DNA of 64,000 bases from Candidatus Woesearchaeota archaeon (lineage in GTDB: Archaea; Nanobdellota; Nanobdellia; Woesearchaeales; WJKR01): NCBI GenBank assembly GCA_016927245.1, contig JAFGNA010000011.1:29330-93329 (forward strand), written 5' to 3'. The notes under the pieces are model-generated. The model ran no database searches. It saw only the letters and a list, made by a program, of their open reading frames with translations, and had not been told where the DNA came from. Below are positions 14,716 to 48,012 of the stretch, piece after piece; the stretch's first letter is position 1; the number at the start of each line of letters is the position of its first letter. The translations under genes and the position numbers were made by a program.

Positions 14716-14920
14716 GCTGTTGCTGTACCTCCTTCTGTTGTTGTGTGCGCAGGGTGTGTATCCTTGCGATGATCTTCTTGAACTGCTTGATCTGGCCGGG
14801 GCTCTTCGGCGCGGTACCCGTGGCCACTTGTGATTGGAGTTTGATGAGCTCGGCGCGGACCTCTTTCTCCTTCTTGTCGAGGTCTTCAGGCCTCATCGCG
14901 GAGAGCTCTGCGTACTTCAT
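14702..14920 (-). CDS. rpl29: Ribosomal protein uL29
   Basis: 72 aa helical protein, ELxKLxxxxATG-like. Operon position. Confidence 0.85.
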   Translation of the reverse strand: MKYAELSAMRPEDLDKKEKEVRAELIKLQSQVATGTAPKSPGQIKQFKKIIARIHTLRTQQQKEVQQQHAGN

Positions 14921-16394: not shown

Positions 16395-16401
16395 TTTCTT
16401 C

Positions 16402-16788: not shown

Positions 16789-16789
16789 T

Positions 16790-17491: not shown

Positions 17492-17505
17492 GTTCTTTTT
17501 TCTCC

Positions 17506-17757
17506 TTACATGAGGCCGAGCTTGGTGGCCACGTCTATCGCGGGGGTTTCTTTGTTGAACGTGATGTACGCTCGTTTCTTGTTGTCGTGCGTGTTGAGGG
17601 TCCTGACGTCGTCGACCTTGACGTTGAACGCTTCTTCGATGGCTTGTTTTATCTGTGGCTTGGTCGCTTGTTGGTCGACGATGAAGATGAGCTGGTTCTG
17701 GCTTTCCATGAGCCTGATGCTCTTCTCCGTTGAGAGAGGGTACTTGATGATGTTCAT
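17506..17757 (-). CDS. rpl23: Ribosomal protein uL23
   Basis: IIKYPLSTEKSIRLME start. Confidence 0.9.
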   Translation of the reverse strand: MNIIKYPLSTEKSIRLMESQNQLIFIVDQQATKPQIKQAIEEAFNVKVDDVRTLNTHDNKKRAYITFNKETPAIDVATKLGLM

Positions 17758-18692: not shown

Positions 18693-18695
18693 GGC

Positions 18696-27094: not shown

Positions 27095-29305
27095 CTATTT
27101 AAACCTTTCTAGTGAATACGCCGCTTCCAACAAGTCCCGTATGGCTTTCGCCTTCTTCTCCCCTATGAGCTCGACCTCCTGCAATTCTTCCGAAGACGCT
27201 TCCAGCACGCCTCTCACCGACCCGAACCGTTCCAAGAGCGGCTTGGCGAGCCTGGGCCCGATGCCTGGCAACGAAGAAACAACGTATTCTTGCTGTTCGC
27301 GCAGCGACCAAGGCTTGCTCGTGTGCGGGTGGTAGTACGGGTCCTCATCCTTGTGCGCCCGCCGCGCCAAGGCCAGGAGCACGCCTGCCGTGTCCACGGG
27401 AGAAGTGGTGCGCAGCAGGGGGATGTGGTAGGACGTCACGATGGTGGCGAGCATGCCCCTGATGGCGGCGGGGTTGACGCGCCGCTGCGCGTACAGGTCT
27501 TCGAGGCCTTCGATGATGAGCACGGGCTTGTACACGGTGCGCAGCTCTGACAACTGCCCGAGCAAGCGGCCGTCGACGATGCTGTCCACGAAGTCCTTGA
27601 CCGTCTTGTACTCCACGACGACGTCATCGCTGATCCTGTAATCGCCGACGCGGAGCTGCTCGAGGTCTAGCTTGGCGTCCTGGGCCAGCAATGATTTCAT
27701 CACGGGCGAGCCCTTCTCGCGGTAATCGACGGTGATGGTAAGTTCCTGCGCGCCGCCGCCGTAGTCCTGCAAGGTCGGCTGCTCGTTCGCAGTGGGCGTG
27801 AATGATCGCTGCAGCTGCTCGATGGCGCGGTACATGCGCTTCTCCTTGTGGTGAGCGCTCCACCGGTAGCCCTCATCCCGAGTCCCCTTTGTGATGAGCA
27901 AGTACACCTTGCCCGCCTCTTGGCGTCCCGTGCGTCCCCGCCGCTGCACCGTCCTTATAGCGGAGGGGATGGGCTCGTAGAACACGACCGCGTCCACGGC
28001 GGGGATGTCCAGCCCTTCCTCGGCCACGGACGTCGCTATCAGTACTTGGAAGTCGCCGTCACGGAACCGTTGCAGCATTGCTTGCTGCTGCTTCTGCGAC
28101 AGGCCGGTGCCGTTCCGCTTCGCCTGGCCGACGAAGACCTCCGCTGATGCTATCTCTTGGAGCCGTCGCTTGAGCACGGCCGCGGTGTCACGGAACTGGG
28201 TGAACACGATGAGCTTCTTCTTGTCGTCTTCCAAGAGCTCCTGCGTCACCAATGACTGCAGGGCGGTGACCTTTGGGTGCTCCTCTCCTTGTCCGAGCAG
28301 GCGGTCGGCGATGATAGCGGCTGATTTGAAGTCAGGGTCCTTGACCAGGTTCTGGACGGCTTTCACCTTGGTCTTCTCGGCTTGCCGCCGGAGCGATTCC
28401 AAGTATGCTGACAGGGCGGCCACGGTCTGCGTCTCGCACAGTTCCAGGGCGTGCTGCACCTTCAACGCCTCTGCTAGCAGGCTGATGGTCTTCAGGACTT
28501 CGTAGCCTTTCTCTCCTTGCGCGGTCTTGGCGTGCAACGCGGCTTGCGCCCTGAGCAGCCCTGTCTTGTTCAGCTCTGATACTTTCAGGACGCCCATCGC
28601 TTGTGCGTCCGCTAATTTGTTGTCGTGGCAGCGCTGGAGGTGGCCGCGCAGCTTGAGGAGGTCTTCTGAGAGCGGGACGTTCTTGAACGTGATGTCGAGG
28701 TCCTGGACGTACTGCGCCACGTCAGGGTCTTCCTGGGAGCGCACTTCGATGCGGTCGATGAACAGGTTCTGGCACACTGCCTTGATGGTCTCCTCGTCCG
28801 ATCCTGGCGACGCGGTCAGGCCGAGGATGCGCTCGTGCAGGGCGTGCTTGTGGTAGTGCTGGGCGATGAAGACGTACGCGTAGTCTCCGAGGGCTCGGTG
28901 CGCCTCATCGAAGACGAGCAAGGCCACGTCGTCCAAGTGTAGCCGCCTGCTGATGAGGTCGTTCTCCATGCCTTGCGGCGTGCTGAAGACGAACGTCGCC
29001 TCCTTCCACAGCTTCGCCCTTTTCTCAGGGGGGACGTGACCGGTGAACAGTGCGAACGAGTCATCGGGGAAGTCGAACAATGACCTGAACGTGTCGAGGT
29101 GTTGCTGCGCCAACGGCTTGGTCGGCGCGAGGAACACTATCTTGCCGTGGGCGTGCTCGTCCAGGCGGTGCGCCGCCAGCAAAGCCGCGATGGCGGTCTT
29201 GCCCATCCCTGTGGGGAGCACGACGAGCGTGTTCTGCTGCGCCGCCGATGAGAGGATGGTCTCTTGGTAGCGTCGCGGCGAGAATCCTGGCTTGAGAAGT
29301 ACCAT
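27095..29305 (-). CDS. hef: Hef helicase-nuclease (SF2 helicase, XPF-type nuclease, HhH2)
   Basis: N-terminal DEAH-type helicase (PTGMGKT, DEAH). C-terminal nuclease VDYREKG...GDYRISDDVVVEYKTVKDFVDSIVDGRL. HhH2 LPGIGPRLAKPLLERFGSV. The nuclease motif reads EYK instead of the canonical ERK. Confidence 0.85.
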   Translation of the reverse strand: MVLLKPGFSPRRYQETILSSAAQQNTLVVLPTGMGKTAIAALLAAHRLDEHAHGKIVFLAPTKPLAQQHLDTFRSLFDFPDDSFALFTGHVPPEKRAKLWKEATFVFSTPQGMENDLISRRLHLDDVALLVFDEAHRALGDYAYVFIAQHYHKHALHERILGLTASPGSDEETIKAVCQNLFIDRIEVRSQEDPDVAQYVQDLDITFKNVPLSEDLLKLRGHLQRCHDNKLADAQAMGVLKVSELNKTGLLRAQAALHAKTAQGEKGYEVLKTISLLAEALKVQHALELCETQTVAALSAYLESLRRQAEKTKVKAVQNLVKDPDFKSAAIIADRLLGQGEEHPKVTALQSLVTQELLEDDKKKLIVFTQFRDTAAVLKRRLQEIASAEVFVGQAKRNGTGLSQKQQQAMLQRFRDGDFQVLIATSVAEEGLDIPAVDAVVFYEPIPSAIRTVQRRGRTGRQEAGKVYLLITKGTRDEGYRWSAHHKEKRMYRAIEQLQRSFTPTANEQPTLQDYGGGAQELTITVDYREKGSPVMKSLLAQDAKLDLEQLRVGDYRISDDVVVEYKTVKDFVDSIVDGRLLGQLSELRTVYKPVLIIEGLEDLYAQRRVNPAAIRGMLATIVTSYHIPLLRTTSPVDTAGVLLALARRAHKDEDPYYHPHTSKPWSLREQQEYVVSSLPGIGPRLAKPLLERFGSVRGVLEASSEELQEVELIGEKKAKAIRDLLEAAYSLERFK

Positions 29306-32581: not shown

Positions 32582-33314
32582 TGTTGGCGTAGCGCGTGAG
32601 CATCTCGTGGGATACCCGTCGCTCTTGGTTGCTCGTCCGCTCTAGGTGGTGGAGGAGTAGGTAGTCGTGGTCGCTGATGCCGTGCTCGTTCGCGATCCTT
32701 TTCGCGCGTTGCTCGACGGCTAGTTCCTCTTCTAAACTGCCTTTCTCGTGTCCATTCACTTCGTTGTGCGCTTCTTCGTGCGCGAGTATGGCGCCGATGA
32801 AGGGTGATTGCGGATTGGTGAAGAGCTGATGTCTTCGCAGCTCTGGGCGGGCGAGGTCTGTGTAGGCTTGCATGACGTCGAGGTAGGTCTGTCTGAGATA
32901 GAGGTCTCGGCGGATGTTGGCGGCGGCGTTGGTGAACGGGGCGTTCGCGGAGGTCTCGTGGATGAGTAGGGTGTACTTCGTGGCCTTGCCTGATGGGTAG
33001 GTGTACGTCATGGGTTGTTTGCGTGCCTTGATGAACTGGCCGTAGAAGCTGTACGCTACCTCTTCATCAGTGTCGAGGATGATGCCTGCGTCTATGGGGT
33101 TGTCGTGCTCGCGGGGCTGCGCGTCCTTCATGAGCTCGTTCAGGAAGTTTGTGTTCTTGAGCAGTGCGCGTATCTCTTCAGGGTTGAGCTCGAGGTCTTG
33201 CACGACGTACGTGAGCAGGGTGCTGTGCGGGGTTTCTTTGATGTCTTCGATGCTCTTGAGAGGGGTGAAGGTTATTTCGTCGCGATAATTCAAGGGGTTC
33301 AGTGTTGGTCGCAT
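32529..33314 (-). CDS. Putative zinc metalloprotein with HExxH..H motif
   Basis: AILAHEEAHNEVNGHEKG near the C-terminus. Family uncertain (DUF45/WLM/SprT-like or ImmA-like). The last ~30 aa of the track ORF may be read-through. Confidence 0.35.
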   Translation of the reverse strand: MRPTLNPLNYRDEITFTPLKSIEDIKETPHSTLLTYVVQDLELNPEEIRALLKNTNFLNELMKDAQPREHDNPIDAGIILDTDEEVAYSFYGQFIKARKQPMTYTYPSGKATKYTLLIHETSANAPFTNAAANIRRDLYLRQTYLDVMQAYTDLARPELRRHQLFTNPQSPFIGAILAHEEAHNEVNGHEKGSLEEELAVEQRAKRIANEHGISDHDYLLLHHLERTSNQERRVSHEMLTRYANISASSTPRSTSPPALLP

Positions 33315-33349
33315 GGTCGCTTCCTCTCAGCGAGAATGGTGTTGGGGGG

Positions 33350-34153
33350 TCATGCCTTGACCTTGATCTTATCCCATGCTAGGTCGAACAGTTGCTCGAG
33401 CGCTTGCGCGAAGAGCTGCGTGTTCACCCAGACGCCGACGTCGTAGGAGGGGTGTACTTCTGTGTCGTCGGCGAGCATGAACAGGACTTGCGTGGTGTCG
33501 ATGATCATGAACCGCGCGTTGAGTCCTTTGAGGTCTTTGACTTCCGCGAACTCGCTGATGGCCTTCGCTCCTTCCATGTTCTTCTCGGTCAGGGGTGCGG
33601 CGACCCGTACTTGCACGCCTCTTTCCGCGGCTTTCTTGAGCTGGCGGAGCAGGGCGTCTCCTTTGCGGTTGAGGCCTCCTTCGCTCGTGATGAGGGTGAT
33701 GCGTTCCTCTGCTTCTTTTATCATGAGGTTGAGGTGTTCGTAGATGTTGTTCTGGCCTTTCACGCTGCCGGTGAGGTCTTCGGGCTCGACGGTGTCGATG
33801 CCGTTGTTGTGTAGTTGTGTTAGTTCTTTGAGGACGTCGCTGCCGTATAGCTCGTCCATGGTTTTCAGCGTGGCCGCTGTTTCTTCGTGTACGCGTTTCT
33901 TTACTCGTTCCACGACTTCTTCTGGGGGCACGGCTATGTACTTGATGGGCTTGCCGAGCTTCATGATGATGAATCCTTTCTTCTCCAATGATTCTAGGAT
34001 GTCGTAGGATCTTGATCGTGGCACGTTGCTGATGTCTGAGAGTTCGCCTGCTGTCGCGACGCCTCGTGAGAGCAGCGCAGTCCATATCTTCGCTTCGTAG
34101 GTGTTGAGGCCGAAGTCTTTTATTTTTTTGAGGAAGTCTTGTTGTACAATCAT
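33350..34153 (-). CDS. trmB: TrmB-family transcriptional regulator (paralog 1)
   Basis: N-terminal wHTH LNTYEAKIWTALLSRGVATAGELSDISNVPRSRSYDILESLEKKGF plus TrmB C-terminal domain. About 65% identical to the paralog at 60852-61661. Confidence 0.85.
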   Translation of the reverse strand: MIVQQDFLKKIKDFGLNTYEAKIWTALLSRGVATAGELSDISNVPRSRSYDILESLEKKGFIIMKLGKPIKYIAVPPEEVVERVKKRVHEETAATLKTMDELYGSDVLKELTQLHNNGIDTVEPEDLTGSVKGQNNIYEHLNLMIKEAEERITLITSEGGLNRKGDALLRQLKKAAERGVQVRVAAPLTEKNMEGAKAISEFAEVKDLKGLNARFMIIDTTQVLFMLADDTEVHPSYDVGVWVNTQLFAQALEQLFDLAWDKIKVKA

Positions 34154-34656
34154 CTTGTGAGAGGAATACTCGAGGTTTTATATAGTTTTCTAAATGTTAC
34201 TATTATAAAGTAAATACAATTTTGTGAGTTATCTCCAACCCAATCATTTCCTGTAGAAATTGTGAAAGGAAGGGTGGAGGTTGGGTGTACTCGTCAATGA
34301 TTTCTTGTTTTTCAGTGCTGTGAATAAACCAAATATAAAGAATATTTTCAAAAATATATTATTATAATTATATTTTATAAAAAAATAATCTATATAGAAA
34401 TTAATTGGTGGTGGTAAGAAACCACCGTCGAGAAAAGAAATACCTACACAACACACCTCTAACCAACACAAACCCCACATCACACACCAACACTCCACAC
34501 GAATAAAAGGGGTGAGGCTTATCGTTTCCAATACAACCATCCAGAAACCACACATCCCCATACCACATAACAAGAGTGCAAAAAACTTAAAAACAACCCT
34601 CTTTTCCTTTGGAAACGTATTGTAGGGGTGCACAAGTGGTCAACAACAACCTAACG
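34154..34656. promoter_or_regulatory. oriC: Putative chromosomal replication origin (oriC) upstream of orc1/cdc6
   Basis: About 500-bp non-coding AT-rich region. ORB-like elements: TTTCCTGTAGAAA...GGGTGG (~34247-34285), CTCCACACGAATAAAAGGGGTG (~34493-34515) and TTCCTTTGGAAACgtattgtaGGGGT (~34605-34629). 80-bp >90% AT DUE (~34330-34410). Hairpin GGTGGT..ACCACC (~34408-34426). A/C-only tract (~34441-34500). Confidence 0.6.
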
Positions 34657-35850
34657 ATGTTCTTCGAGAAGTTCCTCACCAAGGAATCACTCTTCAAAGA
34701 CAAGAAAGTACTCCAATCAACCTATATCCCAGACGAAATAAACCACCGAGACGAGCAAATAAACACCATCGCACAGATACTCGCACCAGCGCTCCGCAAA
34801 GAGAAACCAAGCAACCTCTTCATCTACGGCAAGACCGGCACAGGAAAGACCCTAAGCATCCGCTACACCGCAGAGCAGATGGAACAAGTCGCCAAGCAGC
34901 AAGAAGTCCCACTCTCAGTGTTCTACCTCAACTGCAAGCTCAAGAAGATAGCAGACACCGAGTACCGCCTCATCGCCGAGCTCGCGAGATTCTTCGGGAA
35001 AGCAGTCCCCCCAACAGGCCTCCCCACAGACGAAGTCTACAACATCTTCTTTAAAGCGCTCGACAGCGAAGAACGAGTCGTCCTCCTCATCCTCGACGAG
35101 ATAGACCAACTCGTCAAGAAAGCAGGTGACGAGATAATCTACAACCTCACCCGCATCAACGCCGAGCTCAAAAGGAGCCACGTCAGCATCATCGGCATCA
35201 GCAACGACCTCATGTTCGCGAACAACATCGACCCACGAGTCAAGTCATCGCTATCAGAGGAAGAGATAGTCTTCCCCCCATACAACGCCCTCCAGATACA
35301 AGACATCCTGCACAAGCGGTCATCCCAAGCGTTCAAGGACAGCATCATCACCGAAGGCGTCATCGCCAAGTGCGCCGCCTACGCGGCGAGAGAGCACGGA
35401 GACGCGAGACGAGCTCTCGAACTCCTCCGCGTAGCAGGAGAGCTAGCAGAAAGGAAAGGAGACACCACCATCATGATAACGCATATCGACGACGCGGAGG
35501 AGAAGATAGAACGCGACCGCATCCTCGACATCGTCAAGACCCAGCCAAAACAATTCCAAGCGACGCTCTACCCCATCCTGATGACCCACCAGAAGAAGAA
35601 AGGGCTCGTCTACACAGGAGAGATATACGACGTCTACAAGGACCTCTGCGAGAAGATAGGGCTACGGCCCCTCACCCAAAGGAGGATCAGCGACATCGTC
35701 GCAGAGCTCGACATGCTCGGCATCATCAACGCCAAAGTCATCAGCAAGGGACGATTCGGCAGGACGCGCGAGATAGCGCTCGCCATCCCCTCACAAGTAG
35801 AGCCGAAGATAAGGAAGATACTCGAGGAAGACCTCGGGGTCGCAGCATGA
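34657..35850 (+). CDS. orc1: Orc1/Cdc6 replication initiator
   Basis: AAA+ Walker A GKTGTGKT, Walker B LILDEID, sensor and a C-terminal winged helix. ATG at 34657; the track TTG start at 34609 lies inside the ORB. Confidence 0.9.
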   Translation: MFFEKFLTKESLFKDKKVLQSTYIPDEINHRDEQINTIAQILAPALRKEKPSNLFIYGKTGTGKTLSIRYTAEQMEQVAKQQEVPLSVFYLNCKLKKIADTEYRLIAELARFFGKAVPPTGLPTDEVYNIFFKALDSEERVVLLILDEIDQLVKKAGDEIIYNLTRINAELKRSHVSIIGISNDLMFANNIDPRVKSSLSEEEIVFPPYNALQIQDILHKRSSQAFKDSIITEGVIAKCAAYAAREHGDARRALELLRVAGELAERKGDTTIMITHIDDAEEKIERDRILDIVKTQPKQFQATLYPILMTHQKKKGLVYTGEIYDVYKDLCEKIGLRPLTQRRISDIVAELDMLGIINAKVISKGRFGRTREIALAIPSQVEPKIRKILEEDLGVAA

Positions 35851-35863
35851 GCACCAAACCCAA

Positions 35864-37390
35864 ATGACCCTGACAGGGTATGCGGGAGGACAGGTGGCAA
35901 GCCACATGGTATCAGTACAAGAGCTCCTGGACAACGGCGTCCTCATCGACCCAGGACTCGTAGAGCAGGGAATACCAGGAACAGTCCTCGGGCGGATACT
36001 CGAGAAGTACGGCGAAGACCTCGTAGTCATAGAGAAAGACATGGTCGAAGAATGCGCCGACCCCCAAGAGACCGGCGGCGCGAACGTCGAGGTCATCTGG
36101 TCCTACGATCAAGAGCCGAAGAAGCGCACCTACGACGACTTCGTAAAGCTCCTCCAAACACGTTTCCGTGAGCTTGAACACCTGCTCAAGACGCGGCAAG
36201 AACTCGCCTCGACGACCTCCATCAACAGGATAAAAGCAAAGCAGGACCGCGACCACGTCAGCGTCATCGCCATGGTCAAAGACAAGTCCGAGACCGCGAA
36301 CAACAACATCATGCTCGTCCTAGAAGACTTCTCAGGAACCATCAAAGCGCTCATATCATGCAAGAAACAGGAATTGTTCGACCTCGCCAAGGACGTGCAA
36401 CTCGACGAGGTCCTCGGCTTCACCGGCATGGGAGCGGGCGACATCATCTTCGTGGACAACATCATCTTCCCCGACATACCACTCACCAAGGAGCTCAAGA
36501 AGGCACCAAGGGAAGAGTACGCGGCGTTCATAGGCGACCCGCACTTCGGCAGCAAGGCTTTCCTCAAGGACGACTTCGAGCGCATGCTCCTCTGGCTACA
36601 AGGGAAAGCAGGGAACGACGAGCAGAGAGCCCTCGCCGCGAAGGTGAGATACGTGTTCATCACCGGCGACCTCGTCGAAGGAGTAGGCGTCTACCCCGGA
36701 CAAGAAAACGACCTCACCATCAAGGACATCAAGGAGCAATACGCAGAAGCCGCCGAGTACCTCTCACGCATACCACCCCGCATGCGCATCATCCTCTTCA
36801 CCGGCAACCACGACGCCGGCCGCCTCTCAGAGCCGCAAGAGCCCATCATGCGCGAGTACGCCCCGCAGCTGTACCACCACCCGAACATCACGATCACGAG
36901 CAACCCATCCATGGTGAACATCGGCGCCGCCGACGGCTTCCCAGGCCTCGACTGCCTCCTCTACCACGGCGGCAGCTTCATCTACTACGCAGACACTATC
37001 CCCAGCATCAGGGCGGCAGGAGGCCAGAAACGAGTCGATCTCATCATGCGCTACCTCCTGCAACGACGACACCTAGCCCCGACGCACAACGCGGCCATGA
37101 CCATCCCCACTACTGACAAGGACTGGCTGCTCATCGACCGAGTCCCAGACCTGTTCATCAGCGGCCACATCCACCGCGTGAGCGTCAGCAACTACAGGAA
37201 CGTGACGTGCATCAACGCAGGTTGCTGGACAGAGATAACTGAGGACCAGGTGAAGCGAGGCCTGGAGCCGCAGCCGAGCAAGCTCATCATCATCGGCCTG
37301 CACAACAGGCAAGTAAAATTGATGAACTTCAAAAAGGAACGATCAGCGCCCGCTAAGAGGACGAGCGATGAAGAACAGGAGGATCCCTGA
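35864..37390 (+). CDS. dp1: DNA polymerase II (PolD) small subunit DP1
   Basis: Calcineurin-like phosphoesterase motifs GDPHFG, GNHD, GHIH. OB-fold N-terminal region. 508 aa. Confidence 0.9.
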   Translation: MTLTGYAGGQVASHMVSVQELLDNGVLIDPGLVEQGIPGTVLGRILEKYGEDLVVIEKDMVEECADPQETGGANVEVIWSYDQEPKKRTYDDFVKLLQTRFRELEHLLKTRQELASTTSINRIKAKQDRDHVSVIAMVKDKSETANNNIMLVLEDFSGTIKALISCKKQELFDLAKDVQLDEVLGFTGMGAGDIIFVDNIIFPDIPLTKELKKAPREEYAAFIGDPHFGSKAFLKDDFERMLLWLQGKAGNDEQRALAAKVRYVFITGDLVEGVGVYPGQENDLTIKDIKEQYAEAAEYLSRIPPRMRIILFTGNHDAGRLSEPQEPIMREYAPQLYHHPNITITSNPSMVNIGAADGFPGLDCLLYHGGSFIYYADTIPSIRAAGGQKRVDLIMRYLLQRRHLAPTHNAAMTIPTTDKDWLLIDRVPDLFISGHIHRVSVSNYRNVTCINAGCWTEITEDQVKRGLEPQPSKLIIIGLHNRQVKLMNFKKERSAPAKRTSDEEQEDP

Positions 37391-40300
37391 TGGCCAAGGA
37401 TGGCATGGCGTGCAGCCCCGCCATCAAGGCGTACTTCGACGATATCGAACGCAAGACGAAGAAAGCCTTCGAGGCGGCCACGGAGGCACGCCAACAAGGA
37501 TACGACCCTGAACGATTCGTAGAGGTCAAGCTCGCCAAGAACATGGCTGAACGAGTAGTAGGCATCATCAGCGTCGCGGCCCCGCAGATCATCGGCAGCG
37601 GCGTGACCGAGCGCATCATCGAGCTCGAGAAGGAGTACGGCCTCCAGGACTGGCGAGTCGCGTTCGTCATCGCGCTCGAGATAGCGCGGCAACGACACTG
37701 CTCCTTCAAGGACGAGCTCGAGGCGATAGAGGTAGGCGTCAGGACAGGGTTCGCGTACGTCACGGTGGGCGTGGTCTCCTCCCCGCTAGAAGGGCTGACG
37801 AGCATCGACATCAAGCGTCGCAGGGACGGCCGAGGAAGCTATTTCTGCCTGAACTACGCAGGCCCCATCAGGAACGCTGGGGGGACCGCCGCCGCAGTCT
37901 CAGTCCTCATCGCTGACTACGTTCGCAAGCACCTAGGCTACGCAAAGTACGACCCTGATGAGAAAGAGGTGCAGCGCTGCTACGCCGAGCTCGAGGACTA
38001 CCACCAATACGTCGCCAACCTGCAATACTACCCGTTCAAGGAGGAGTCCGAGTTCCTCATGCGGCACATCCCCGTAGAGATAGCCGGCGACCCGTCTGAG
38101 AAGCGAGAGGTGTCCAACGTCGGCGTCAAGGACCTCCCGCGCGTGCAGACCAACCACCTCCGCAGCGGCTACTGCCTCATCCACTCATCATGCATCCCGC
38201 TCAAGGCTCCCAAGCTATGGAAGCAGATCTCCAAGTGGAAGGAAGAGATGGGCATGGAGGACTGGGAATTCCTCGAAGAGCACATCAAGCTGCAGAAGGA
38301 GCTCAAGGCGAAGCAGGCAGAGCAGACAGCCCAGCACCAAGAGAGCGACGCGAAGATCAAGCCTGACGGCACCTTCGTCGCAGACCTCGTCGGCGGCCGA
38401 CCAGTACTCGGACACCCGATGAGGAGCGGCGGCTTCCGCCTCCGGTACGGCAGGAGCAGGGCTTCCGGCTACTCAGGACAAGCGACACACCCGGCAACCC
38501 TCGCCATCCTGAACGGGCTCATCGCCACGGGCACCCAGCTCAAAGTGGAACGGCCAGGGAAAGCCGCGGCGTTCACCACGTGCGACACCCTCATGGGGCC
38601 CATCGTCAAACTCGATGACGGCAGCGTGGTGTCGTTGCGGGACGAGGCGACCGCTCGTGAACTCTCCCCGCGCGTCAAGGAGATACTCTACCTCGGCGAC
38701 GCCCTCATCAACTATGGCGATTTCTTCGACCGCGCCCACGTCCTCGTCCCCCCAGGCTACGTCGAGGAGTTCTGGGCGCTCGAGGCCGAGGAGTCGTTGC
38801 GAGAGCACGGCGATGAGCCAGACGCGCGGCTACGGGAAGCGATCAATAACCCGCTCTCCACCAAGGTGTCTTTCTCAGAGGCAAAGTCATGGTCCTCTTC
38901 TTACGGCTTGCCGTTGCACCCCTCGCACCTGTTCTTTTACGCCGAGGTCGACAAGGAGCAGTTGCTCGCCCTCGCGTCCTGGCTTGGCAAGGCGTCGTTC
39001 ATGCTCGGAGGCTCCCCCAGCGTATCGCTCCCGCTCCCTCACCCTGGGAAGCGCACGCTCGAGCTGCTCGGCGTGCCGCACCGCGTCGAGGATGGCCTCG
39101 CAGTCGTGTCCGGCGACGACGCCCTCGCGCTCACGGCCACGTTGCGGGTGAGGAGTAAGGAGGAGGCGTCATCGCTCGAGTCGTTCGTCAAGGACGCGGA
39201 GGGCTCAGCGCTCAGCATCGTGCAGGAGCGAGCATCGTTCATCATCAAGGACAAGTCAGGATTGTTCATAGGGGCGCGCATGGGACGGCCGGAGAAGGCG
39301 AAGATGCGTAAGATGACAGGCAGCCCGCACACGTTGTTCCCCGTCGGCGCTGAGGGCGGCCGGCTCCGCAGCTTCCAGTCAGCGTTGGAGAAGGGGCTCG
39401 TCACCGCGGAGTTCCCCGTGTTCCTCTGCCCTGAGTGCGGTCATCGCTCCCCTTTCTCTGTGTGCGACAAGTGCGGCGCTCTCGGCGTTCGCCAGAAGGT
39501 TCATCCGCGAACTGAGGATCTCGTGCCGCCCGGGGCTGCTGAGGAATCAGGGATCGAGTTCCTTGACTTCAAGCGGTGGGGCGTGCCTATCAGGGACCTC
39601 TTCGACTATTGCTTGCGGCGCATGGGCACGAAGGTGTACCCTGACTTGGTCAAGGGCGTTCGCGGCACGGTAGGCAAGGACCACACCCCCGAGCACCTCC
39701 TCAAAGGCATCTTGCGGGCGAAGCACGACGTCTACGTGAACAAGGACGGCACGGTGCGGTACGACGCGTCAGAGGTCGCCCTGACGCACTTCAAACCGAA
39801 AGAGGTCGGGACGCCTGTCGCTCGTCTGCGAGAGCTCGGCTACACCAAGGATAATAAGGGGGAGGAGTTGCGGCGCGATGACCAGGTGCTTGAGCTCCGC
39901 GCCCAGGACGTCGTCCTGCCCGCCTGCCCTGACAGCCCTGATGAGGGGTCTGACAAGGTGCTCGTGAGCATAGCGAAGTTCCTGGACGAGCTGCTCGTCA
40001 CGTTGTACGGGCTCCCGCCGTTCTATAATGTCTCTTCTCGCGATGACCTCGTCGGCCACATCGTCGTGGGGTTGGCGCCGCACACCAGCGCAGGGGTGGT
40101 GGGGCGTATCATCGGCTTCAGCAAGACGCAAGGGTTCTTCGCGCACCCGTTGTACCACGCCGCTATGCGACGGGATTGCGATGGTGACGAGTCGTGCTTC
40201 TTCCTCCTCATGGACGCGTTCATGAACTTCTCCCGCCGCTTCATGTCAACGTCTCGCGGTAGCACCATGGACGCTCCTTTGGTGTTGACTACCTTGCTCA

Positions 40301-40932
40301 ACCCGGCAGAGGTGGATGACATGGCGTTCAAAATGGACATCGCTGATCATTACCCGCTCGAGTTCTACCGTGCGTGCCAGGAGTACAAGATGCCGTGGGA
40401 TGTTTCTGTCAGGAAGATCGGCGACGTCCTCTTCACCCCCGCGCAGTTCGAGGGTATGCGCTTCACGCACGGCACTGATGACATCAACGCAGGGGTGTTG
40501 TGCAGCGCGTACAAGCTCTTGCCGTCCATGGGGGAGAAGATTGCCGCTCAGATGGACTTGGCGGAGAAGCTGCGCGCGGTGGACACCGCTGATGTCGCTC
40601 GCTTGGTCATCGAGAAGCACTTCATCAGGGATACCAAGGGCAATCTGCGCAAGTTCTCATTGCAGCAGTTCCGGTGCGTGCAGTGCAACGAGAAGTTCAG
40701 GCGTCCTCCTCTGAACGGCCGGTGCTCCTCGTGCGGCGGCAAGGTCATCTTCACGATTTCTGAAGGATCAGTCACCAAGTACTTGGAGCCGTCGTTATTG
40801 CTCGCGGAGAAGTACGACCTGGACGCGTATTTGCGGCAGACGCTGGAGCTGACCAGGGTGCGTGTCGAGTCGTACTTCGGCAAGGAGAAGGAGAAGCAGA
40901 CAGGGTTAGCGGGCTGGCTGGGCGGCGGGTGA
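37390..40932 (+). CDS. dp2: DNA polymerase II (PolD) large subunit DP2
   Basis: 1180 aa. Conserved DP2 regions including Zn-binding CPECG..CDKCG and the catalytic region. No intein (canonical length). Confidence 0.9.
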   Translation: MAKDGMACSPAIKAYFDDIERKTKKAFEAATEARQQGYDPERFVEVKLAKNMAERVVGIISVAAPQIIGSGVTERIIELEKEYGLQDWRVAFVIALEIARQRHCSFKDELEAIEVGVRTGFAYVTVGVVSSPLEGLTSIDIKRRRDGRGSYFCLNYAGPIRNAGGTAAAVSVLIADYVRKHLGYAKYDPDEKEVQRCYAELEDYHQYVANLQYYPFKEESEFLMRHIPVEIAGDPSEKREVSNVGVKDLPRVQTNHLRSGYCLIHSSCIPLKAPKLWKQISKWKEEMGMEDWEFLEEHIKLQKELKAKQAEQTAQHQESDAKIKPDGTFVADLVGGRPVLGHPMRSGGFRLRYGRSRASGYSGQATHPATLAILNGLIATGTQLKVERPGKAAAFTTCDTLMGPIVKLDDGSVVSLRDEATARELSPRVKEILYLGDALINYGDFFDRAHVLVPPGYVEEFWALEAEESLREHGDEPDARLREAINNPLSTKVSFSEAKSWSSSYGLPLHPSHLFFYAEVDKEQLLALASWLGKASFMLGGSPSVSLPLPHPGKRTLELLGVPHRVEDGLAVVSGDDALALTATLRVRSKEEASSLESFVKDAEGSALSIVQERASFIIKDKSGLFIGARMGRPEKAKMRKMTGSPHTLFPVGAEGGRLRSFQSALEKGLVTAEFPVFLCPECGHRSPFSVCDKCGALGVRQKVHPRTEDLVPPGAAEESGIEFLDFKRWGVPIRDLFDYCLRRMGTKVYPDLVKGVRGTVGKDHTPEHLLKGILRAKHDVYVNKDGTVRYDASEVALTHFKPKEVGTPVARLRELGYTKDNKGEELRRDDQVLELRAQDVVLPACPDSPDEGSDKVLVSIAKFLDELLVTLYGLPPFYNVSSRDDLVGHIVVGLAPHTSAGVVGRIIGFSKTQGFFAHPLYHAAMRRDCDGDESCFFLLMDAFMNFSRRFMSTSRGSTMDAPLVLTTLLNPAEVDDMAFKMDIADHYPLEFYRACQEYKMPWDVSVRKIGDVLFTPAQFEGMRFTHGTDDINAGVLCSAYKLLPSMGEKIAAQMDLAEKLRAVDTADVARLVIEKHFIRDTKGNLRKFSLQQFRCVQCNEKFRRPPLNGRCSSCGGKVIFTISEGSVTKYLEPSLLLAEKYDLDAYLRQTLELTRVRVESYFGKEKEKQTGLAGWLGGG

Positions 40933-40984
40933 TCTGGAGGGTTTTTCTTTCTGGGTATGATTACTGTTAACACTCGAGCTTGGT

Positions 40985-41120
40985 CGATTTTCGTAGAAAA
41001 TCAGACGGAGCTGCAAGCGAAGTGACCAAGGTCGTGTTTAGCTCTTCCGAAGCCGCAGGCTGAGAGGACGCAGTCCGTGGGTCGAGGAGAACTTTTGTTC
41101 GACGACGAAGTCACTGTTCC
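40985..41120. repeat. Non-coding repeat element, copy A of a ~150-nt family
   Basis: ttcgtagaaaatcagacggagctgcaagcgaag...cgtgggtcgaggagaacttttgttcgacgacgaag is about 70-75% similar to copies at 41893-42045 and 42048-42090. Confidence 0.4.
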
Positions 41121-41213
41121 TATAACAAAAAAGAGAGAGTTGCCGCCGCTCATTCGTACCTTTTTAAACCAAAAACCAGAAGGTTTTTATAGTTATACAA
41201 ACTTATATACCTT

Positions 41214-41492
41214 ATGCCGCAAGCACTAGCAAAAAAAGAAATTCTACATTATCCTCGATTAGACACTGTTCTAATGGTTGAGGAGCTCATCAAAGAACAC
41301 TCAGGCGAGTACAAAAAAAAGGCACTTTGGGAGTCACTTCCAAAAGGAATGATGTATCAAACATTCTGTGTGGTCTTTGATTACTTGCTAGATTCAGGAA
41401 AAATCGCTCTAGATAAAGAAGGACACATCGCATGGATCTGGAATCCAGAACTCGTAAAAAAATACTTGTCAAAACCAGAACTTTGGGTGTGA
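41214..41492 (+). CDS. Putative antitoxin partner (92 aa, possible winged-helix)
   Basis: Small ORF ending 4 nt before the RelE-like gene start. Low GC. No recognisable RelB/Phd motif. Confidence 0.3.
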   Translation: MPQALAKKEILHYPRLDTVLMVEELIKEHSGEYKKKALWESLPKGMMYQTFCVVFDYLLDSGKIALDKEGHIAWIWNPELVKKYLSKPELWV

Positions 41493-41495
41493 ACC

Positions 41496-41825
41496 ATGGA
41501 GTCAAAGGTAACATTTGGAGATATAAAGCTCAAAGAAGCATATACTAAATTGAAGACTTCAAAAACTGAAGATCAAATGCTTTACAAATGGATAACAAGA
41601 GCAATAGATGATCTAAAAGTAAATGCCTTTTGTGGAACGCAAGTTCCAAAGAGAGTCATCCCAAAAATCTACACTGAGAAATACGAGACGGACAATCTTT
41701 GGAAATATGACTTGCCAAAAGGATGGAGACTCATCTACACTATAGCAAATGGCGAAGTACTTATCATTTCAATAATTCTAGAATGGATGACTCACAAAGA
41801 CTACGAAAAAAGATTCAAATACTAA
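41496..41825 (+). CDS. relE: RelE/ParE-family toxin (mRNA interferase)
   Basis: C-terminal KGWRLIYTIANGEVLIISIILEWMTHKDYEKRF matches the archaeal aRelE pattern (GDYRVIYSV....V.IL.L.PRG) and overall fold pattern. Confidence 0.5.
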   Translation: MESKVTFGDIKLKEAYTKLKTSKTEDQMLYKWITRAIDDLKVNAFCGTQVPKRVIPKIYTEKYETDNLWKYDLPKGWRLIYTIANGEVLIISIILEWMTHKDYEKRFKY

Positions 41826-41892
41826 AAAAGGCGGCAACTCTCTCAAAAACAATAAATAACAGTGATTGAGCTATACATCGGGCTTAAGGAGA

Positions 41893-42095
41893 GTTTCGAC
41901 TGAAAGGAGAAATTCGGGCGGAGTCTGCAAGACGAAGCTCTTTAAGCCCTGTTAAGTCGCCCCGAGCAATTTATTGCGAGAGCCTGCAAGGCGTGGGTCG
42001 GAGTAAAACTTGTTTTACGTAGAAGTAAAATTTGAGCTCTTAATATTCATTCGACTGAAGGGAGTCAAAATGTGCGGAGCACTAGTGGAAGCTTA
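41893..42095. repeat. Non-coding repeat element, copies B1 (full) and B2 (partial) in tandem; possible small structured RNA
   Basis: TTCGACTGAA(A/G)GGAG..GCGGAG repeated about 155 nt apart. B1 contains ggagtctgcaagacgaag and gagcctgcaaggcgtgggtcggag, matching copy A. About 45% GC. Confidence 0.4.
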
Positions 42096-42650
42096 TTAAA
42101 ATAATGAATCCTTAAAATAATCTTTGTAGTATATTGATCTTGAATTGCTAATTAATTTGTCATTATTATAATTAATTATTTCTAATGCTAGTTCTACATC
42201 ATAAAAATTTCTTTCAAAATATATTTCATTATTCTTGCTCCTATCATCAAAATATCCTAACCGTATTTGTTTTTGTTTTTCAATATCCTTTTCTCCTTTG
42301 AAAAGTTTAACTTGTATTTTTTGTTCAAGTGTTATTGGACTATAGAAACCTTCAAATACTAATTTTTTAATAGGTACTGTTTTTTTCGCAGGTACAACAT
42401 CTAAAATATATTTAGTTATCATACCACATTGAATATTTTGGACTGTAATCATATCTCCATAGATATCATCAAAACGTTTACCATCTTGTCCAATTGTTTC
42501 CCCATTATGATCTAGTGAGACTATCTTGATTGATTGGTGAACTATTTGAGATTCTGTAAGTATGTGTGCTATTTTAAATTCTTCAGTAACTATTAAATCT
42601 GAAATGCTTTTGTAAACTCGTTTCTTTGAATCCATATTATTGGAATTCAA
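42096..42650 (-). CDS. Hypothetical protein, about 30% GC, apparently foreign origin
   Basis: 184 aa. Strongly AT-biased codons unlike host genes. No recognisable motifs. Confidence 0.4.
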   Translation of the reverse strand: MNSNNMDSKKRVYKSISDLIVTEEFKIAHILTESQIVHQSIKIVSLDHNGETIGQDGKRFDDIYGDMITVQNIQCGMITKYILDVVPAKKTVPIKKLVFEGFYSPITLEQKIQVKLFKGEKDIEKQKQIRLGYFDDRSKNNEIYFERNFYDVELALEIINYNNDKLISNSRSIYYKDYFKDSLF

Positions 42651-42848
42651 TTTATCTATAAAAAGTTTTCCGCAGCTTTCACTTTTTGTTTCTTTTTTTT
42701 AAAAAGAAAGAGAGCTCAAATTTTATTCGACTTAACACGTATTTAGCGACCTTTTGGGAGCATAAAACGTGTTATGATTGCCGCGTAGCGGATGCTTTCC
42801 GGCTTCTTAGCTGTCATCGTTTTGAATTACTCTCTTTTTTGTTCCTTC

Positions 42849-43658
42849 ATGGATTATATGGCTCGTTTGCAGGAGGAGTGTGATCTTCGTGGTTTTAGCC
42901 GTCAGACTAAGAAGACTTATGCGTGTGTCGTCTCTTCTTTCCTCTGTTTTGTTGAGAAAAGAGGTTTAACCCTTGACAAGGTGGGTGTTAAGTCGTATTT
43001 GCTCTCCTTGCAGGTCTCTGCTAACGCCGCTCGCCTCTATCACGCCGCGCTCAAGTTCTTCTTCGCCAGCGTCCTCGATGACCCTTTCTCTGACGTGGAA
43101 GTCCCTAAGAAGCGGAAGCCTAAGATCCTTCCCAAGGTCCTCTCTAAGGAGCAGATCAAGAAAATCATTGATTCCACGGAGAACCTCAAGCATCGCCTTG
43201 TCATCAAGCTCCTCTACTCGTCTGGTTTGCGCCTCCAAGAACTCATCAATCTCAAAAGGGCGCATGTCGACTTCGACAGGGGTCTTATCAACGTCGTCCA
43301 AGGCAAGGGCAAGAAGGATCGGGTCACCCTCCTCTCAAATGAACTCCGGTTGGACCTCCTCAAATACTACAGCTTAACAACTTTCCAGACGCCGTACGTG
43401 TTCGAAGGACGAAAAGGCAAGTACAGCAAGAAGTCCGTGCAGAAGGTCTTGGAGAAAGCGGGGAAAGCCATCGATGCAGAGCTCACCCCGCACATGCTCC
43501 GCCATTCCTTCGCCACGCACCTCTTGGAGGCTGGCGTCGACATCCGTTTCATACAGAAACTTTTAGGTCACGCTGATGTGAAGACGACCGAGGTCTACGC
43601 GTACGTCTCCAATCAGTCGCTCGCCGCTATCGAGAACCCGTTGGATCGCTTGGCTTAG
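42849..43658 (+). CDS. Tyrosine recombinase/integrase (XerA/XerC/D-like)
   Basis: C-terminal catalytic HMLRHSFATHLLEAGVDIRFIQKLLGHADVKTTEVYAYV (H..R, H, Y) and N-terminal SAM-like domain. About 50% GC with T-ending codons (gat, cgt, ctt, ttt) unlike host C-ending usage. Likely start at 42849. Confidence 0.8.
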   Translation: MDYMARLQEECDLRGFSRQTKKTYACVVSSFLCFVEKRGLTLDKVGVKSYLLSLQVSANAARLYHAALKFFFASVLDDPFSDVEVPKKRKPKILPKVLSKEQIKKIIDSTENLKHRLVIKLLYSSGLRLQELINLKRAHVDFDRGLINVVQGKGKKDRVTLLSNELRLDLLKYYSLTTFQTPYVFEGRKGKYSKKSVQKVLEKAGKAIDAELTPHMLRHSFATHLLEAGVDIRFIQKLLGHADVKTTEVYAYVSNQSLAAIENPLDRLA

Positions 43659-44068
43659 ATCTTGCTCGTGAACGTGTAGCGGGCGCCGCACGCTTGGCAT
43701 TTGAAGTAGTAGATGTCGCCTTCTTTTGACAGTTTCGTGTCGGGCTTGTGGCATTCCCTGCAGATGACGAACTCGTCCGCGTAGCTTTGCAGCTTCTCGT
43801 TGATCTTGCTGGCGGGGATCTTGCTGCCGAAGATGATGAGTTGGTTGACTTGTTCTGCGGTGGTGGCGAGCTCTCGGGAGAGGTATTTGAGGAGGTGCTT
43901 TATGGGTCTGTGCAGGGCGTCCGCTATCTGGTGCAGGTTGCTGATGATGGTCTTGGTGCCTTGCTGGTGGCCTTTGACTTTGGGCAGTTGGAACCGTTCT
44001 TCAGCGTGGTTGATCTCGGGCAGGGCTTCTTTTGCCTGTTTGAGGAGTTGGTGGTAATCGGGAGGCAT
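43655..44068 (-). CDS. eif2b: Translation initiation factor aIF2 beta subunit
   Basis: C-terminal zinc ribbon CRECHKPDT...KCQACGA and N-terminal helix region typical of aIF2-beta. Confidence 0.85.
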   Translation of the reverse strand: MPPDYHQLLKQAKEALPEINHAEERFQLPKVKGHQQGTKTIISNLHQIADALHRPIKHLLKYLSRELATTAEQVNQLIIFGSKIPASKINEKLQSYADEFVICRECHKPDTKLSKEGDIYYFKCQACGARYTFTSKI

Positions 44069-44149: not shown

Positions 44150-44223
44150 GGGCTCTTAGCTCAGCCTGGTAGAGCGCAACGTTCGCAACGTTGAGGCCGC
44201 GGGTTCGAATCCCGCAGAGTCCA
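44150..44223 (+). tRNA. tRNA-Ala: tRNA-Ala (anticodon CGC), no encoded CCA
   Basis: Cloverleaf derived by hand. Acceptor GGGCUCU/AGAGUCC with G3:U70 Ala identity pair. D-arm GCUC-AGCCUGGUA-GAGC. Anticodon stem CAACG/CGUUG, loop UUCGCAA. T-arm GCGGG-UUCGAAU-CCCGC. Discriminator A. Upstream TATA TTTTTTAAA at about -30. Confidence 0.85.
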
Positions 44224-44596: not shown

Positions 44597-45004
44597 ATGG
44601 AGGTGGTGAAATTGTACAGCTGTGTGGAATGCGGGGAGGTCATCACCAACCCCATCAGCGAGCAGCGCCTCGCCCTCGAGTTCAGGGCGTGGCTGGCAGA
44701 GATGGACGGCGCTTTGGAAGAGCGGTTCTCCGAAGAGTACGTCTCGCGCGCCGACTTCATCGACGAAGAATGCGTCGGCCAGGAGTGCATCCTGACCAAG
44801 CGGAAGATGGATGTCTGCCCGTATTGCGTCGCCGCACAGCTCATCGACTGGCTGCACAGCGCCACGTTCGACCCGGTCGTCCTGGATGCAGCCCTGGATT
44901 TCTTCGTCGCCCGCCAGGATGAGCCGTACGTCCTGCAGCGGTTGCGGGCGAAAGGATGTGGCGTGAGGATCATGCTGACGCGAACCCAGCGGCTCATGGC
45001 ATGA
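44597..45004 (+). CDS. Hypothetical CxxC...CxxC zinc-ribbon protein
   Basis: YSCVECGEV...DVCPYCVAAQ. GC3-rich host-like codons. The overlapping 297-aa minus-strand ORF (44402-45295) is judged antisense noise. Confidence 0.45.
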   Translation: MEVVKLYSCVECGEVITNPISEQRLALEFRAWLAEMDGALEERFSEEYVSRADFIDEECVGQECILTKRKMDVCPYCVAAQLIDWLHSATFDPVVLDAALDFFVARQDEPYVLQRLRAKGCGVRIMLTRTQRLMA

Positions 45005-45050
45005 CTGTTTTTCCTTTTTTTTCCATCTGCATTCGGTTCTTTTCCAGGCA

Positions 45051-45102
45051 TCCCCTCCACAGCGCCTCTCCCCCGCAAATCTCCACAGGAAATGAAAGGG
45101 TG
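45051..45102. promoter_or_regulatory. ORB-like element(s) between the Zn-ribbon gene and tbp
   Basis: CTCCACAGGAAATGAAAGGGTG (~45081-45102) closely matches the oriC element CTCCACACGAATAAAAGGGGTG. A second CTCCACAG half lies at ~45054. An AT-rich stretch follows. Confidence 0.4.
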
Positions 45103-45239
45103 AAAAAACTATACTGTTGTATTTTTTACCAGATATTTTTAAACTTCGCTCGACGAGAAGCGCCCAACTAGTCTTTTCCATGAGAAACGGAGGGGGTTCC
45201 GCCTCCGCAACACACATTTCCTCATATCTAGTTTGATTT

Positions 45240-45342
45240 AAAAAAAGATTTATAAAGGGGAAGTGTTTTCCCCTTAAAAGAGACCCGCAGTTCATCTGGT
45301 GTGGGGGATGAAACCAAGAAGGTCTTCCGAAGGTGATACCCT
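45240..45342 (+). promoter_or_regulatory. tbp promoter: TATA TTTATAAA preceded by an A-rich BRE region, with downstream palindrome GGGGAAgtgtTTTCCCC
   Basis: aaaaaaagatttataaaggggaagtgttttcccc lies about 60-95 nt upstream of the tbp ATG. Confidence 0.5.
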
Positions 45343-45900
45343 ATGGCAGCAACCAAGGAACCCAAACCGCAAGACATCCAAGTGGTAAACATCGTCGTCT
45401 CCACCAGCCTAGGACACGACATCCCCTTGGAGAAGATGGCAGCCACCCTGTCCAACACTGAGTACAACCCAGAACAATTCCCAGGACTGGTCATCAGGAT
45501 AAAAGACCCCAAGACCTCCGCCCTAGTCTTCAGCAGCGGCAACGTCGTGTGCACCGGTGCGCGCAGCATTCCCAAAGTAGAAGAGAGCATCCAGAAGATC
45601 ATCGAATCCCTGGAGAAGATCGGCATCACCATCACCATCAAGCCGAAAATCAACATCCAGAACATCGTCGCCTCAGGCAACATCGGCACAGACCTCAACC
45701 TGAACACCCTGGCGATGAAGCTGGACAACACGGAATACGAGCCGGAACAATTCCCAGGACTCGTCCTCAAGCTGAAAGAAGCAAAAGCGACGTTCCTGCT
45801 CTTCAGCAACGGCAAGGTCGTGTGCACCGGTACCAAATCGGAAGCCATGGTACACGAGGCACTGGACAAGCTGGTGGAAAAGCTTAAGACCGTGATGTGA
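45343..45900 (+). CDS. tbp: TATA-box binding protein
   Basis: Two TBP repeats: QNIVASGNIGTDLNL, EYEPEQFPGLVLKL, KVVCTGTKS. 185 aa. Downstream hairpin plus T-run terminator at about 45903-45935. Confidence 0.95.
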   Translation: MAATKEPKPQDIQVVNIVVSTSLGHDIPLEKMAATLSNTEYNPEQFPGLVIRIKDPKTSALVFSSGNVVCTGARSIPKVEESIQKIIESLEKIGITITIKPKINIQNIVASGNIGTDLNLNTLAMKLDNTEYEPEQFPGLVLKLKEAKATFLLFSNGKVVCTGTKSEAMVHEALDKLVEKLKTVM

Positions 45901-45974
45901 TTCCCTCCTGCATGCCAGGAAGGGCTTTTTTATACGTGATAAACCTCTTGATGAAGTAGTGCGAACCAGGTGGT

Positions 45975-48002: not shown

Positions 48003-48012
48003 GGTTCGTGCG

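Follow-up and report, generated by a model that had tools for sequence, protein, structure and literature searches.

Archaeal replication origins are defined by an AT-rich duplex unwinding element (DUE), flanking origin recognition boxes (ORBs) and an adjacent initiator gene (PMC4010727, PMC5333045). In Pyrococcus abyssi and P. furiosus, oriC is followed by cdc6/orc1, dp1 and dp2, in this order (PMC1904270), inverted ORBs with TTCC...GAA core motifs surround AT-rich DNA, and the initiator gene adjoins the origin with other replication genes clustered nearby (PMC1904270, PMC4010727). The same features recur in a 64-kb stretch of a Candidatus Woesearchaeota genome (contig JAFGNA010000011.1; hereafter the window, meaning the whole of the DNA analysed, 58% G+C overall), in the intergenic region that precedes the genes of the initiator Orc1 and of the two subunits, DP1 and DP2, of DNA polymerase D (PolD). 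This locus is likely to be a chromosomal Orc1-dependent replication origin of the oriC1 type in a Woesearchaeota/Nanoarchaeota (DPANN) archaeon, a reading in which we have good confidence.

The candidate origin occupies 482 nt of non-coding DNA (34154-34635) between a divergent TrmB-family regulator gene and orc1-dp1-dp2, and stops 1 nt short of the orc1 start codon. Pfam matches confirmed the order oriC, orc1/cdc6, polD-small, polD-large that a preliminary description of the locus had proposed, and the flanking genes on both sides are oriented away from the candidate origin. Among 47 related Woesearchaeota/Nanoarchaeota loci retrieved with the Orc1 protein (55-86% identity), dp1 lies directly 3' of orc1 in all 47 and DP2 was found in 45, while a TrmB homologue was seen in 19 related loci, mostly directly upstream and divergent.

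Several differences separate this region from its Pyrococcus counterpart. The Pyrococcus ORBs are 34 bp long with a longer spacer (TTCCAGTGGAAATGAAACTCTGGGGGG) and are accompanied by many 13-bp mini-ORBs, whereas those of the window span 22-23 bp and are joined by one weak mini-ORB-like site. Pyrococcus also has a second ORB cluster inside dp1; none is present in the window, where a search for this Thermococcales-type cluster over 34700-41000 returned no match of at least 4 bits with the ORB matrix described below. In only three relatives (L021, L031 and L034), single ORB matches of 18.8-21.7 bits were observed ca. 2450-2473 nt after the start of the orc1 match, probably inside dp1. A central palindrome, designated here palindrome X, and the mirrored composition of the arms around it are not described for Pyrococcus in the literature examined.

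The closest initiators are those of S. solfataricus oriC1 (Orc1-1) and A. pernix ori1 (ORC1), with which the two-part ORB, made of a dyad and a G-string, is shared. The best PDB matches of the window Orc1 are S. solfataricus Orc1-1 (2QBY_A, 1.1e-107) and A. pernix ORC1 (2V1U_A, 5.4e-98), both crystallised on origin DNA, and its similarity to Orc1-3 or ORC2-type paralogues is far lower; by these matches, the initiator is assigned to the Orc1-1 class. In the alignment, G120/L121, R341 and R365 of S. solfataricus Orc1-1 are matched by its motifs TGL (Gly-Leu of the initiator-specific motif, ISM), TQRR (helix-turn-helix Arg) and GRFG (wing Arg), respectively; these residue numbers assume that the PDB chain is shifted by 11 residues relative to the native protein, a presumed value. 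In Orc1-1, ORB binding is weakened when the residues kept here, the Gly-Leu pair of the ISM and the arginines of the winged helix, are mutated (PMC3089459). The S. solfataricus ORB, with 36 bp, is longer than those of the window, and Crenarchaea have several origins and Orc1 paralogues, in contrast to the single-copy ORC1/Cdc6 reported across Nanobdellota (preprint 10.64898/2026.05.13.725050).

The clade consensus TTCCATAGGAAATAAAGGGGTG, derived from the relatives, is close to the published archaeal ORB consensus CTTCCAGTGGAAACGAAAGGGGT (PMC4153887, Table 2), with which the window ORBs are identical at 13-15 of 22 positions. The same source gives the Methanomassiliicoccales ORB as GTTCCAGTGGAAATGG-AGGGGTA, which has in common with the clade consensus a 3-nt spacer; here, 13-16 of 23 positions are identical in the window ORBs. 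The central dyad bases differ from the Methanomassiliicoccales and pan-archaeal forms reported there (Pelve et al. via PMC4153887), being ATA rather than GTG, and the right half of ORB-B in the window is degenerate (ACGAAT for GGAAAT).

The class of origin proposed here is itself textbook, that of a standard archaeal Orc1/ORB origin; modestly new are the central palindrome, the mirrored strand composition and an ORB pair upstream of tbp-mcm. The origins of DPANN archaea, which are uncultured or difficult to cultivate, were hitherto only assumed. A 2026 preprint rotates 208 Nanobdellota genomes to ORC1, without origin-sequence analysis (10.64898/2026.05.13.725050), and the literature searchable here returned no description of origin sequences for the Woesearchaeota/Nanoarchaeota lineage. 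Together with ca. 70 related loci, the present locus provides a concrete definition of a Woesearchaeales origin, comprising an inverted ORB pair, a DUE, a central palindrome and a promoter ORB, that can be used for genome orientation, for estimating growth from coverage peaks and for designing binding experiments with the single Orc1.

Origin recognition boxes and the AT-rich core

A 22-nt ORB matrix was trained on ORB-like sites of the relatives only, with the window excluded. When applied to the window, it produced 7 matches of at least 12 bits against 0.16 expected, and three of the top five (ORB-A, ORB-B and ORB-C; Table 1) fell in the region upstream of orc1. ORB-A and ORB-B form an inverted pair separated by 234 bp, with their dyads turned inward, that of ORB-A toward the AT-rich stretch, and their G-strings outward. 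The two closest relatives (L001 and L002) were used for a three-way alignment with the window, in which the ORB cores appear as conserved islands, most of the surrounding spacer having diverged; the ORB-A dyad and the CACCC upstream of it are kept in both. A matrix restricted to the core gave five matches in the 482 nt against 0.14 expected. Independent backing comes from the matrix positions that had been left unconstrained (A14, A17 and T23) and from an unbiased 8-mer count, in which the G-string word AAGGGGTG was the most enriched (13 of 39 origin regions versus 0.17 expected).

The preliminary description had quoted three ORB strings. All are present, CTCCACACGAATAAAAGGGGTG at 34493-34514, TTTCCTGTAGAAA(n12)GGGTGG at 34247-34277 and TTCCTTTGGAAAC(n8)GGGGT at 34604-34629, the spacer of the third being 8 nt rather than the 9 stated. 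Its proposal that ORBs flank the AT-rich DNA holds for ORB-A and ORB-B, but two of the three orientations are opposite to those suggested. Read on the plus strand, ORB-A scores -2.5 bits, and the GGGTGG downstream of it is absent from L001 and L002, the conserved G-string being the upstream ACCC. Likewise, ORB-C scores 3.7 bits on the plus strand versus 15.2 bits on the minus strand, and the GGGGT assigned to it as a G-string more plausibly belongs to the Shine-Dalgarno sequence of orc1.

The core enclosed by ORB-A and ORB-B contains the 80 nt richest in A+T of the whole window (34323-34402, 92.5%), which bears out the stretch of >90% AT previously placed at about 34330-34410, and includes a 40-nt run composed of A and T only (34350-34389). 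Nearest-neighbour energies identified it as the least stable duplex of the 64 kb, both over 50 bp (34353-34402, z=5.7) and over 100 bp (34306-34405, z=5.4). Tandem repeats are limited to one weak 14-nt array of 2.8 copies, within the AT core.

The layout was compared across 30 loci, window included, that have enough upstream DNA and both ORBs. The succession ORB(-), AT-rich stretch, ORB(+) was found in 28 of these 30 Woesearchaeota/Nanoarchaeota loci. The minus-strand ORB lies 260-880 nt before orc1 (1,329 nt in one locus), the plus-strand ORB 84-236 nt before it in nearly all relatives, and a third ORB site is often present ca. 50 nt before the gene. In every relative, a 60-nt stretch of 88-100% A+T occurs between the outer two ORBs. 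ORB matches of at least 14 bits have a density of 2.44 per kb within 1 kb upstream of orc1 versus 0.043 per kb elsewhere, a ratio that is partly circular, as some upstream matches are training sites.

Contig ends were also recorded near these cores. Of 44 related contigs, twelve stop within the 500 nt that precede orc1 (L004, L005, L007, L008, L010, L011, L015, L016, L023, L024, L027 and L031), and only 4 end over the next 5.5 kb. Several of these ends fall in the AT-only core or at palindrome X, and assemblies seem to break at this core, a frequent occurrence of which assemblers should be aware.

Table 1. Features of the candidate origin region, its flanking genes and the tbp-mcm ORB pair (positions in the window)
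Feature	Position	Strand	Remarks
TrmB-family transcription regulator gene	33350..34153	-	Pfam TrmB 1.1e-20; left border of the origin region
TrmB TATA box, CTATATAAAA then ACC	34176..34185	-	32 nt before the TrmB ATG; predicted from sequence
ORB-A, TTCTACAGGAAATGATTGGGTT	34237..34258	-	23.5 bits; top match of the window
Left arm	34259..34320		G/T-rich and C-poor on the plus strand; 40-nt bin composition; between ORB-A and the AT core
DUE	34306..34405		A+T peak and lowest duplex stability of the 64 kb
Palindrome X, AATCTATATAGAAA	34387..34400		Clade form TTWC-WATATW-GAA; at the right end of the AT-only run and close to the midpoint of ORB-A/ORB-B
Small conserved block, AACCACCGTCGAGAA	34420..34434	+	Kept in the window, L001 and L002
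Right arm	34438..34500	+	63 nt, G-free, ca. 90% A+C; runs into ORB-B
ORB-B, CTCCACACGAATAAAAGGGGTG	34493..34514	+	17.6 bits; kept in L001 and L002; inverted relative to ORB-A
Weak dyad-only (mini-ORB-like) site, TTGTATTGGAAAC	34524..34536	-	10.8 bits with the core-only matrix; partly kept as TTTCCAATA in L002
orc1 TATA-like element, ACTTAAAAAC	34585..34594	+	A-rich stretch upstream; predicted
ORB-C, TTCCAAAGGAAAAGAGGGTTGT	34593..34614	-	15.2 bits; overlaps the orc1 promoter
Probable orc1 Shine-Dalgarno, AGGGGTG	34624..34630	+	5 nt before GTG 34636; predicted
orc1/cdc6	34636..35850	+	Pfam Cdc6_C, Cdc6_lid, AAA; start picked from alignment
PolD small subunit DP1	35864..37390	+	Pfam DNA_pol_E_B, Metallophos
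PolD large subunit DP2	37390..40932	+	Pfam PolC_DP2 N-terminal, central and catalytic domains
Two direct ORBs	45081-45102 and 45176-45197	+	22.3 and 21.7 bits; 146 nt upstream of tbp-mcm

Palindrome X and the composition of the two arms

The exact 10-mer of palindrome X occurs once in the window and, across the 47 loci, is nearly confined to origin regions. Palindrome X was found in 18 of 30 inter-ORB regions versus 0.04 expected, at a density of 1.61 per kb versus 0.002 per kb elsewhere, and CTATATAG is the second most enriched 8-mer after the G-string word (13 of 39 origin regions versus 0.42 expected). Its arms are those of the ORB dyad, spaced 2 bp wider, and it sits ca. 70-120 nt from one ORB, at or near the switch in strand composition. 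A literature search for this sequence yielded no archaeal-origin paper.

Metagenomic sequences were scanned with a DNA-only pattern consisting of palindrome X, a gap of 85-115 nt and the ORB skeleton. Among the 39 loci matched, 34 adjoin an orc1 homologue (52-73% identity), 2 leave no room for the gene and 3 are without orc1. The order X, ORB(+), orc1 was observed in 22 of the 34 orc1-adjacent matches; in the other 12, the ORB points away from orc1 and corresponds to the distal ORB. The matches in L050, L075 and L080, which have room for the gene and no adjacent orc1 homologue, could have arisen by chance or mark origin-like sites that are not linked to orc1.

Palindrome X marks the centre of symmetry of the origin, with a function that is presumptive. 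It is tempting, if tentative, to regard it as a lineage-specific centre element of Woesearchaeales, at which binding or assembly other than the canonical contact of Orc1 with an ORB would determine the loading position of the two MCM rings and the strand encircled by each; with the tbp-mcm ORBs, this would amount to an Orc1 circuit coupling origin occupancy to helicase and TBP expression in reduced DPANN genomes. Candidates for this role could be TBP, the TrmB-like protein encoded next to the region, or an Orc1 dimer bound symmetrically to a 'stretched' dyad. Other explanations of the element were considered. Judged by its sequence, it does not look like a promoter made of a TFB recognition element (BRE) and a TATA box, since the clade form TTTTC-TATATA-GAAAA has no purine-rich 5' BRE and presents, on either strand, a T-rich side 5' and an A-rich side 3'; the promoters used for comparison read GAAAAC-TATATAAAA-CC (TrmB) and AAGAATA-TTTATAAAA-CC (orc1 in relatives). 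The G-free tract leaves no possibility of a small open reading frame (ORF) downstream of palindrome X, nor do the relatives conserve one.

The two arms that separate the core from the outer ORBs differ in strand composition. The left part has a G content of 0.31 and a C content of 0.10. The right arm is the longest G-free run of the window (P about 0.001, with intergenic DNA shuffled). The preliminary description had called 34441-34500 strictly A/C-only, which overstates the case: this segment comprises 25 A, 29 C, 6 T and 0 G, and the longest true A/C-only run measures 19 nt (34461-34479). L001 has a corresponding 69-nt G-free tract with 51% C, and more distant relatives carry an A-rich, T-poor arm at this position. 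Across the 30 loci, read on the orc1-sense strand, G exceeds C and T exceeds A in the left inter-ORB half, and C exceeds G and A exceeds T in the right half (Wilcoxon p=0.0007 for GC and p=0.003 for AT). Six high-GC metagenomic relatives mostly have a T- or G/T-rich arm before palindrome X and an A-rich arm after it, most clearly L058 and L081. The G-free A/C tract of the window is an extreme form of this right arm. With a G/T-rich left and an A/C-rich right arm, the strand tracked 3' to 5' by an outward-moving MCM would therefore be the G/T-rich one on each side. In A. pernix, Orc1 favours T-rich single strands (PMC8287685).

Minor candidates in this region were discarded. By inspection, the G-free tract contains a single run of four C/G, which argues against a G-quadruplex or i-motif. 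A hairpin GGTGGT...ACCACC at 34408-34427 is not kept in L001 or L002. Words similar to the small conserved block (GACGASAA) were seen in the origin regions of L010, L012, L023 and L036; CCGNCGAGAA / GACGASAA was dismissed as an origin-specific word, as it occurs beyond origins.

Promoters, the tbp-mcm boxes and competing readings

Each ORB would be bound by one Orc1, with its winged helix on the dyad and its AAA+ ISM on the G-string. Placed in opposite orientations, the two Orc1 molecules could then each bring MCM to the AT-rich core from its own side, followed by core melting and by the bidirectional departure of forks. At ORB-C, Orc1 would block its own promoter, resulting in negative autoregulation.

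The promoter elements on which this last step depends can be outlined from the alignments. The orc1 start is most likely GTG 34636, since this codon is aligned with the ATG of L001 and L002; ATG 34657, implied as the start by the preliminary description, is probably internal. The AGGGGTG preceding the GTG is more simply read as a Shine-Dalgarno sequence because of its proximity to the start codon and its alignment with equivalents in L002 (GAGGTGA, 5 nt before ATG) and L001 (GGGGTG, 4 nt before). At the orc1 TATA-like element, a block AAAAYWTAAAAAC is conserved among the window, L001 and L002. In AT-rich relatives, the sequence upstream of orc1 reads TTTATA(A/T)AACC, 4-7 nt, TTTCYNNTGGAA, 3-8 nt and ATG, a spacing that suggests a leaderless orc1 mRNA, with the dyad between the TATA box and the transcription start. 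Most relatives have this dyad in the interval from the TATA box to the ATG; in the window, the orc1-proximal dyad lies at 34602-34616 and a short leader carries the Shine-Dalgarno-like sequence. Judging from its position, ORB-C is a probable operator for orc1 autoregulation. On the other side, the TrmB TATA box shares the TATA(A/T)AACC form of the relatives' orc1 promoters, and its distance from the ATG suggests that this mRNA, too, is probably leaderless. The TrmB promoter lies outside the ORB-A/ORB-B pair.

A second ORB pair was detected upstream of tbp (45343-45900) and mcm (45975-48002). A matching pair precedes tbp in all 7 loci with this gene in view, the named relatives being L002, L039, L018, L019, L025 and L043. 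An inverted repeat ATAC-N4-GTAT (45108-45125), followed by TTTTTTAC, lies between the two boxes and is kept in the window and L002. In the relatives, the block formed by a zinc-ribbon gene, the ORB pair, tbp and mcm is found to the left of TrmB (280-2687 in L002); in the window (44597-48648), it is located to the right of DP2 in the opposite orientation, and a single inversion of the origin-carrying segment would explain this position.

One might take this pair for a second or even the main origin, the orc1-proximal site being secondary. Its scores are above those of ORB-B and ORB-C, it is conserved in every locus where it could be sought, and it adjoins a helicase gene. This reading is nevertheless unlikely. 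The two boxes are direct repeats rather than inverted, palindrome X is absent, and their 73-bp spacer (66% A+T, z=3.4, rank 455) is no less stable than ordinary intergenic DNA. The pair was moreover relocated with tbp-mcm across the origin and is thus tied to these genes, not to the unwinding element. Based on this shared relocation and on a spacer that is not unusually unstable, the tbp-mcm ORBs are read here as putative Orc1 sites tied to those genes, with a regulatory or titrating role in preference to that of a second origin; a weak second origin is the less probable alternative. A possible analogue is the ORB cluster near Haloarcula hispanica oriC2, which lies off the DUE, lowers origin activity and could bind or titrate the initiator (PMC4010727); here, the sites are tied to a promoter and move with the genes.

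Alternatively, the region upstream of orc1 would only be the divergent promoter region of TrmB and orc1, the ORBs serving as Orc1 transcription operators and replication starting elsewhere. ORB-C, which both in the window and in most relatives follows the orc1 TATA element and precedes the start codon, and the regulatory-looking, high-scoring ORBs upstream of tbp-mcm are in line with such a role, and Orc1 paralogues do act as transcription regulators, as described for Orc1-2 of Sulfolobales (PMC9738581). We consider this quite unlikely, given that neither ORB-A nor ORB-B is placed at a promoter: ORB-A is 52 nt from the TrmB TATA box, on its far side as seen from the gene, and ca. 70 nt separate ORB-B from the orc1 TATA element downstream of it. 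These two ORBs face each other across the DNA of lowest duplex stability in the window, in an inverted geometry and with an A+T-rich spacer that recur among the relatives, and a DUE with a symmetric layout is unnecessary for promoter control alone.

The reading of the locus as oriC, with ORBs flanking an AT-rich unwinding element at orc1-dp1-dp2, is the one proposed by the preliminary description and was supported by all comparisons made at the sequence level, from which we infer that replication probably fires here. Several points weigh against it. Part of the information content of the ORB matrix was imposed, as the matrix was seeded by a regular expression. Orc1 sites are not unique to the orc1 locus, the pair at 45.1 kb being equally high-scoring. 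GC and AT skews flip at 34 kb, and also at ca. 20, 45, 49, 54 and 59 kb, together with gene strand; because these flips track gene orientation, skew within the 64 kb is uninformative on a replication switch. Finally, some archaea, such as Thermococcus kodakarensis, retain an oriC-like locus and can replicate without it (PMC5663688).

This last precedent, along with that of T. barophilus (PMC11005403), in which an intact oriC-cdc6 locus is also kept, raises the scenario of a conserved but largely dispensable origin with mainly recombination-dependent initiation, as in some Thermococcales. Such a scenario appears very unlikely in view of the strong purifying conservation of the ORBs, palindrome X and their layout across an order with fast-evolving, reduced genomes, and of the near-universal single-copy ORC1 in Nanobdellota. 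As for chance matches in an AT-rich intergenic spacer devoid of replication function, short dyads such as TTCC..GGAA do arise by chance and a loose core pattern occurs at 0.96 per kb in background DNA, yet the excess of full-ORB and core matches over expectation, the preservation of the elements across species with otherwise diverged intergenic DNA and a metagenome pattern scan that returned orc1 neighbourhoods almost exclusively refute this explanation, whose probability is negligible.

Neighbouring genes and other features of the window

Beyond the candidate origin, the window is a replication gene cluster, including primase, a Hef-like gene, orc1, polD, mcm and an OB-fold gene (48013-48648). 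One ORF matches both the small and the large primase subunits in Pfam and may be a fused PriS-PriL. Near it is a Hef-like helicase-nuclease with DEAD, ERCC4 and HhH domains, the two being listed together at 20897-22423 (-) and 27095-29305 (-). Within the origin region itself, a 129-aa minus-strand ORF (34244-34633) was rejected as a gene, as it has no Pfam match and its indels relative to L001 and L002 are not multiples of three. An Rfam scan of 33000-36000 (E<=1) identified no RNA family.

A low-GC island (41000-43700; 0.36-0.43 versus 0.58) immediately follows DP2 and contains genes for a ParE/YoeB-like toxin (41496-41825) and a tyrosine integrase (42792-43658). Beside it lie the eIF2-beta gene (43655-44068, minus strand) and a tRNA-Ala (44150-44223). 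The island is probably an integrated mobile element.

On the minus strand, a ribosomal protein operon (7300-19600) encodes S5, S4e, L2 and others, followed by SecY, and has an AT skew near -0.5. Its plus strand displays A-free runs of up to 165 nt (15657-15821), which amount to T-free coding sequence, with many spurious ORFs; these T-free coding stretches probably represent charged low-complexity extensions.

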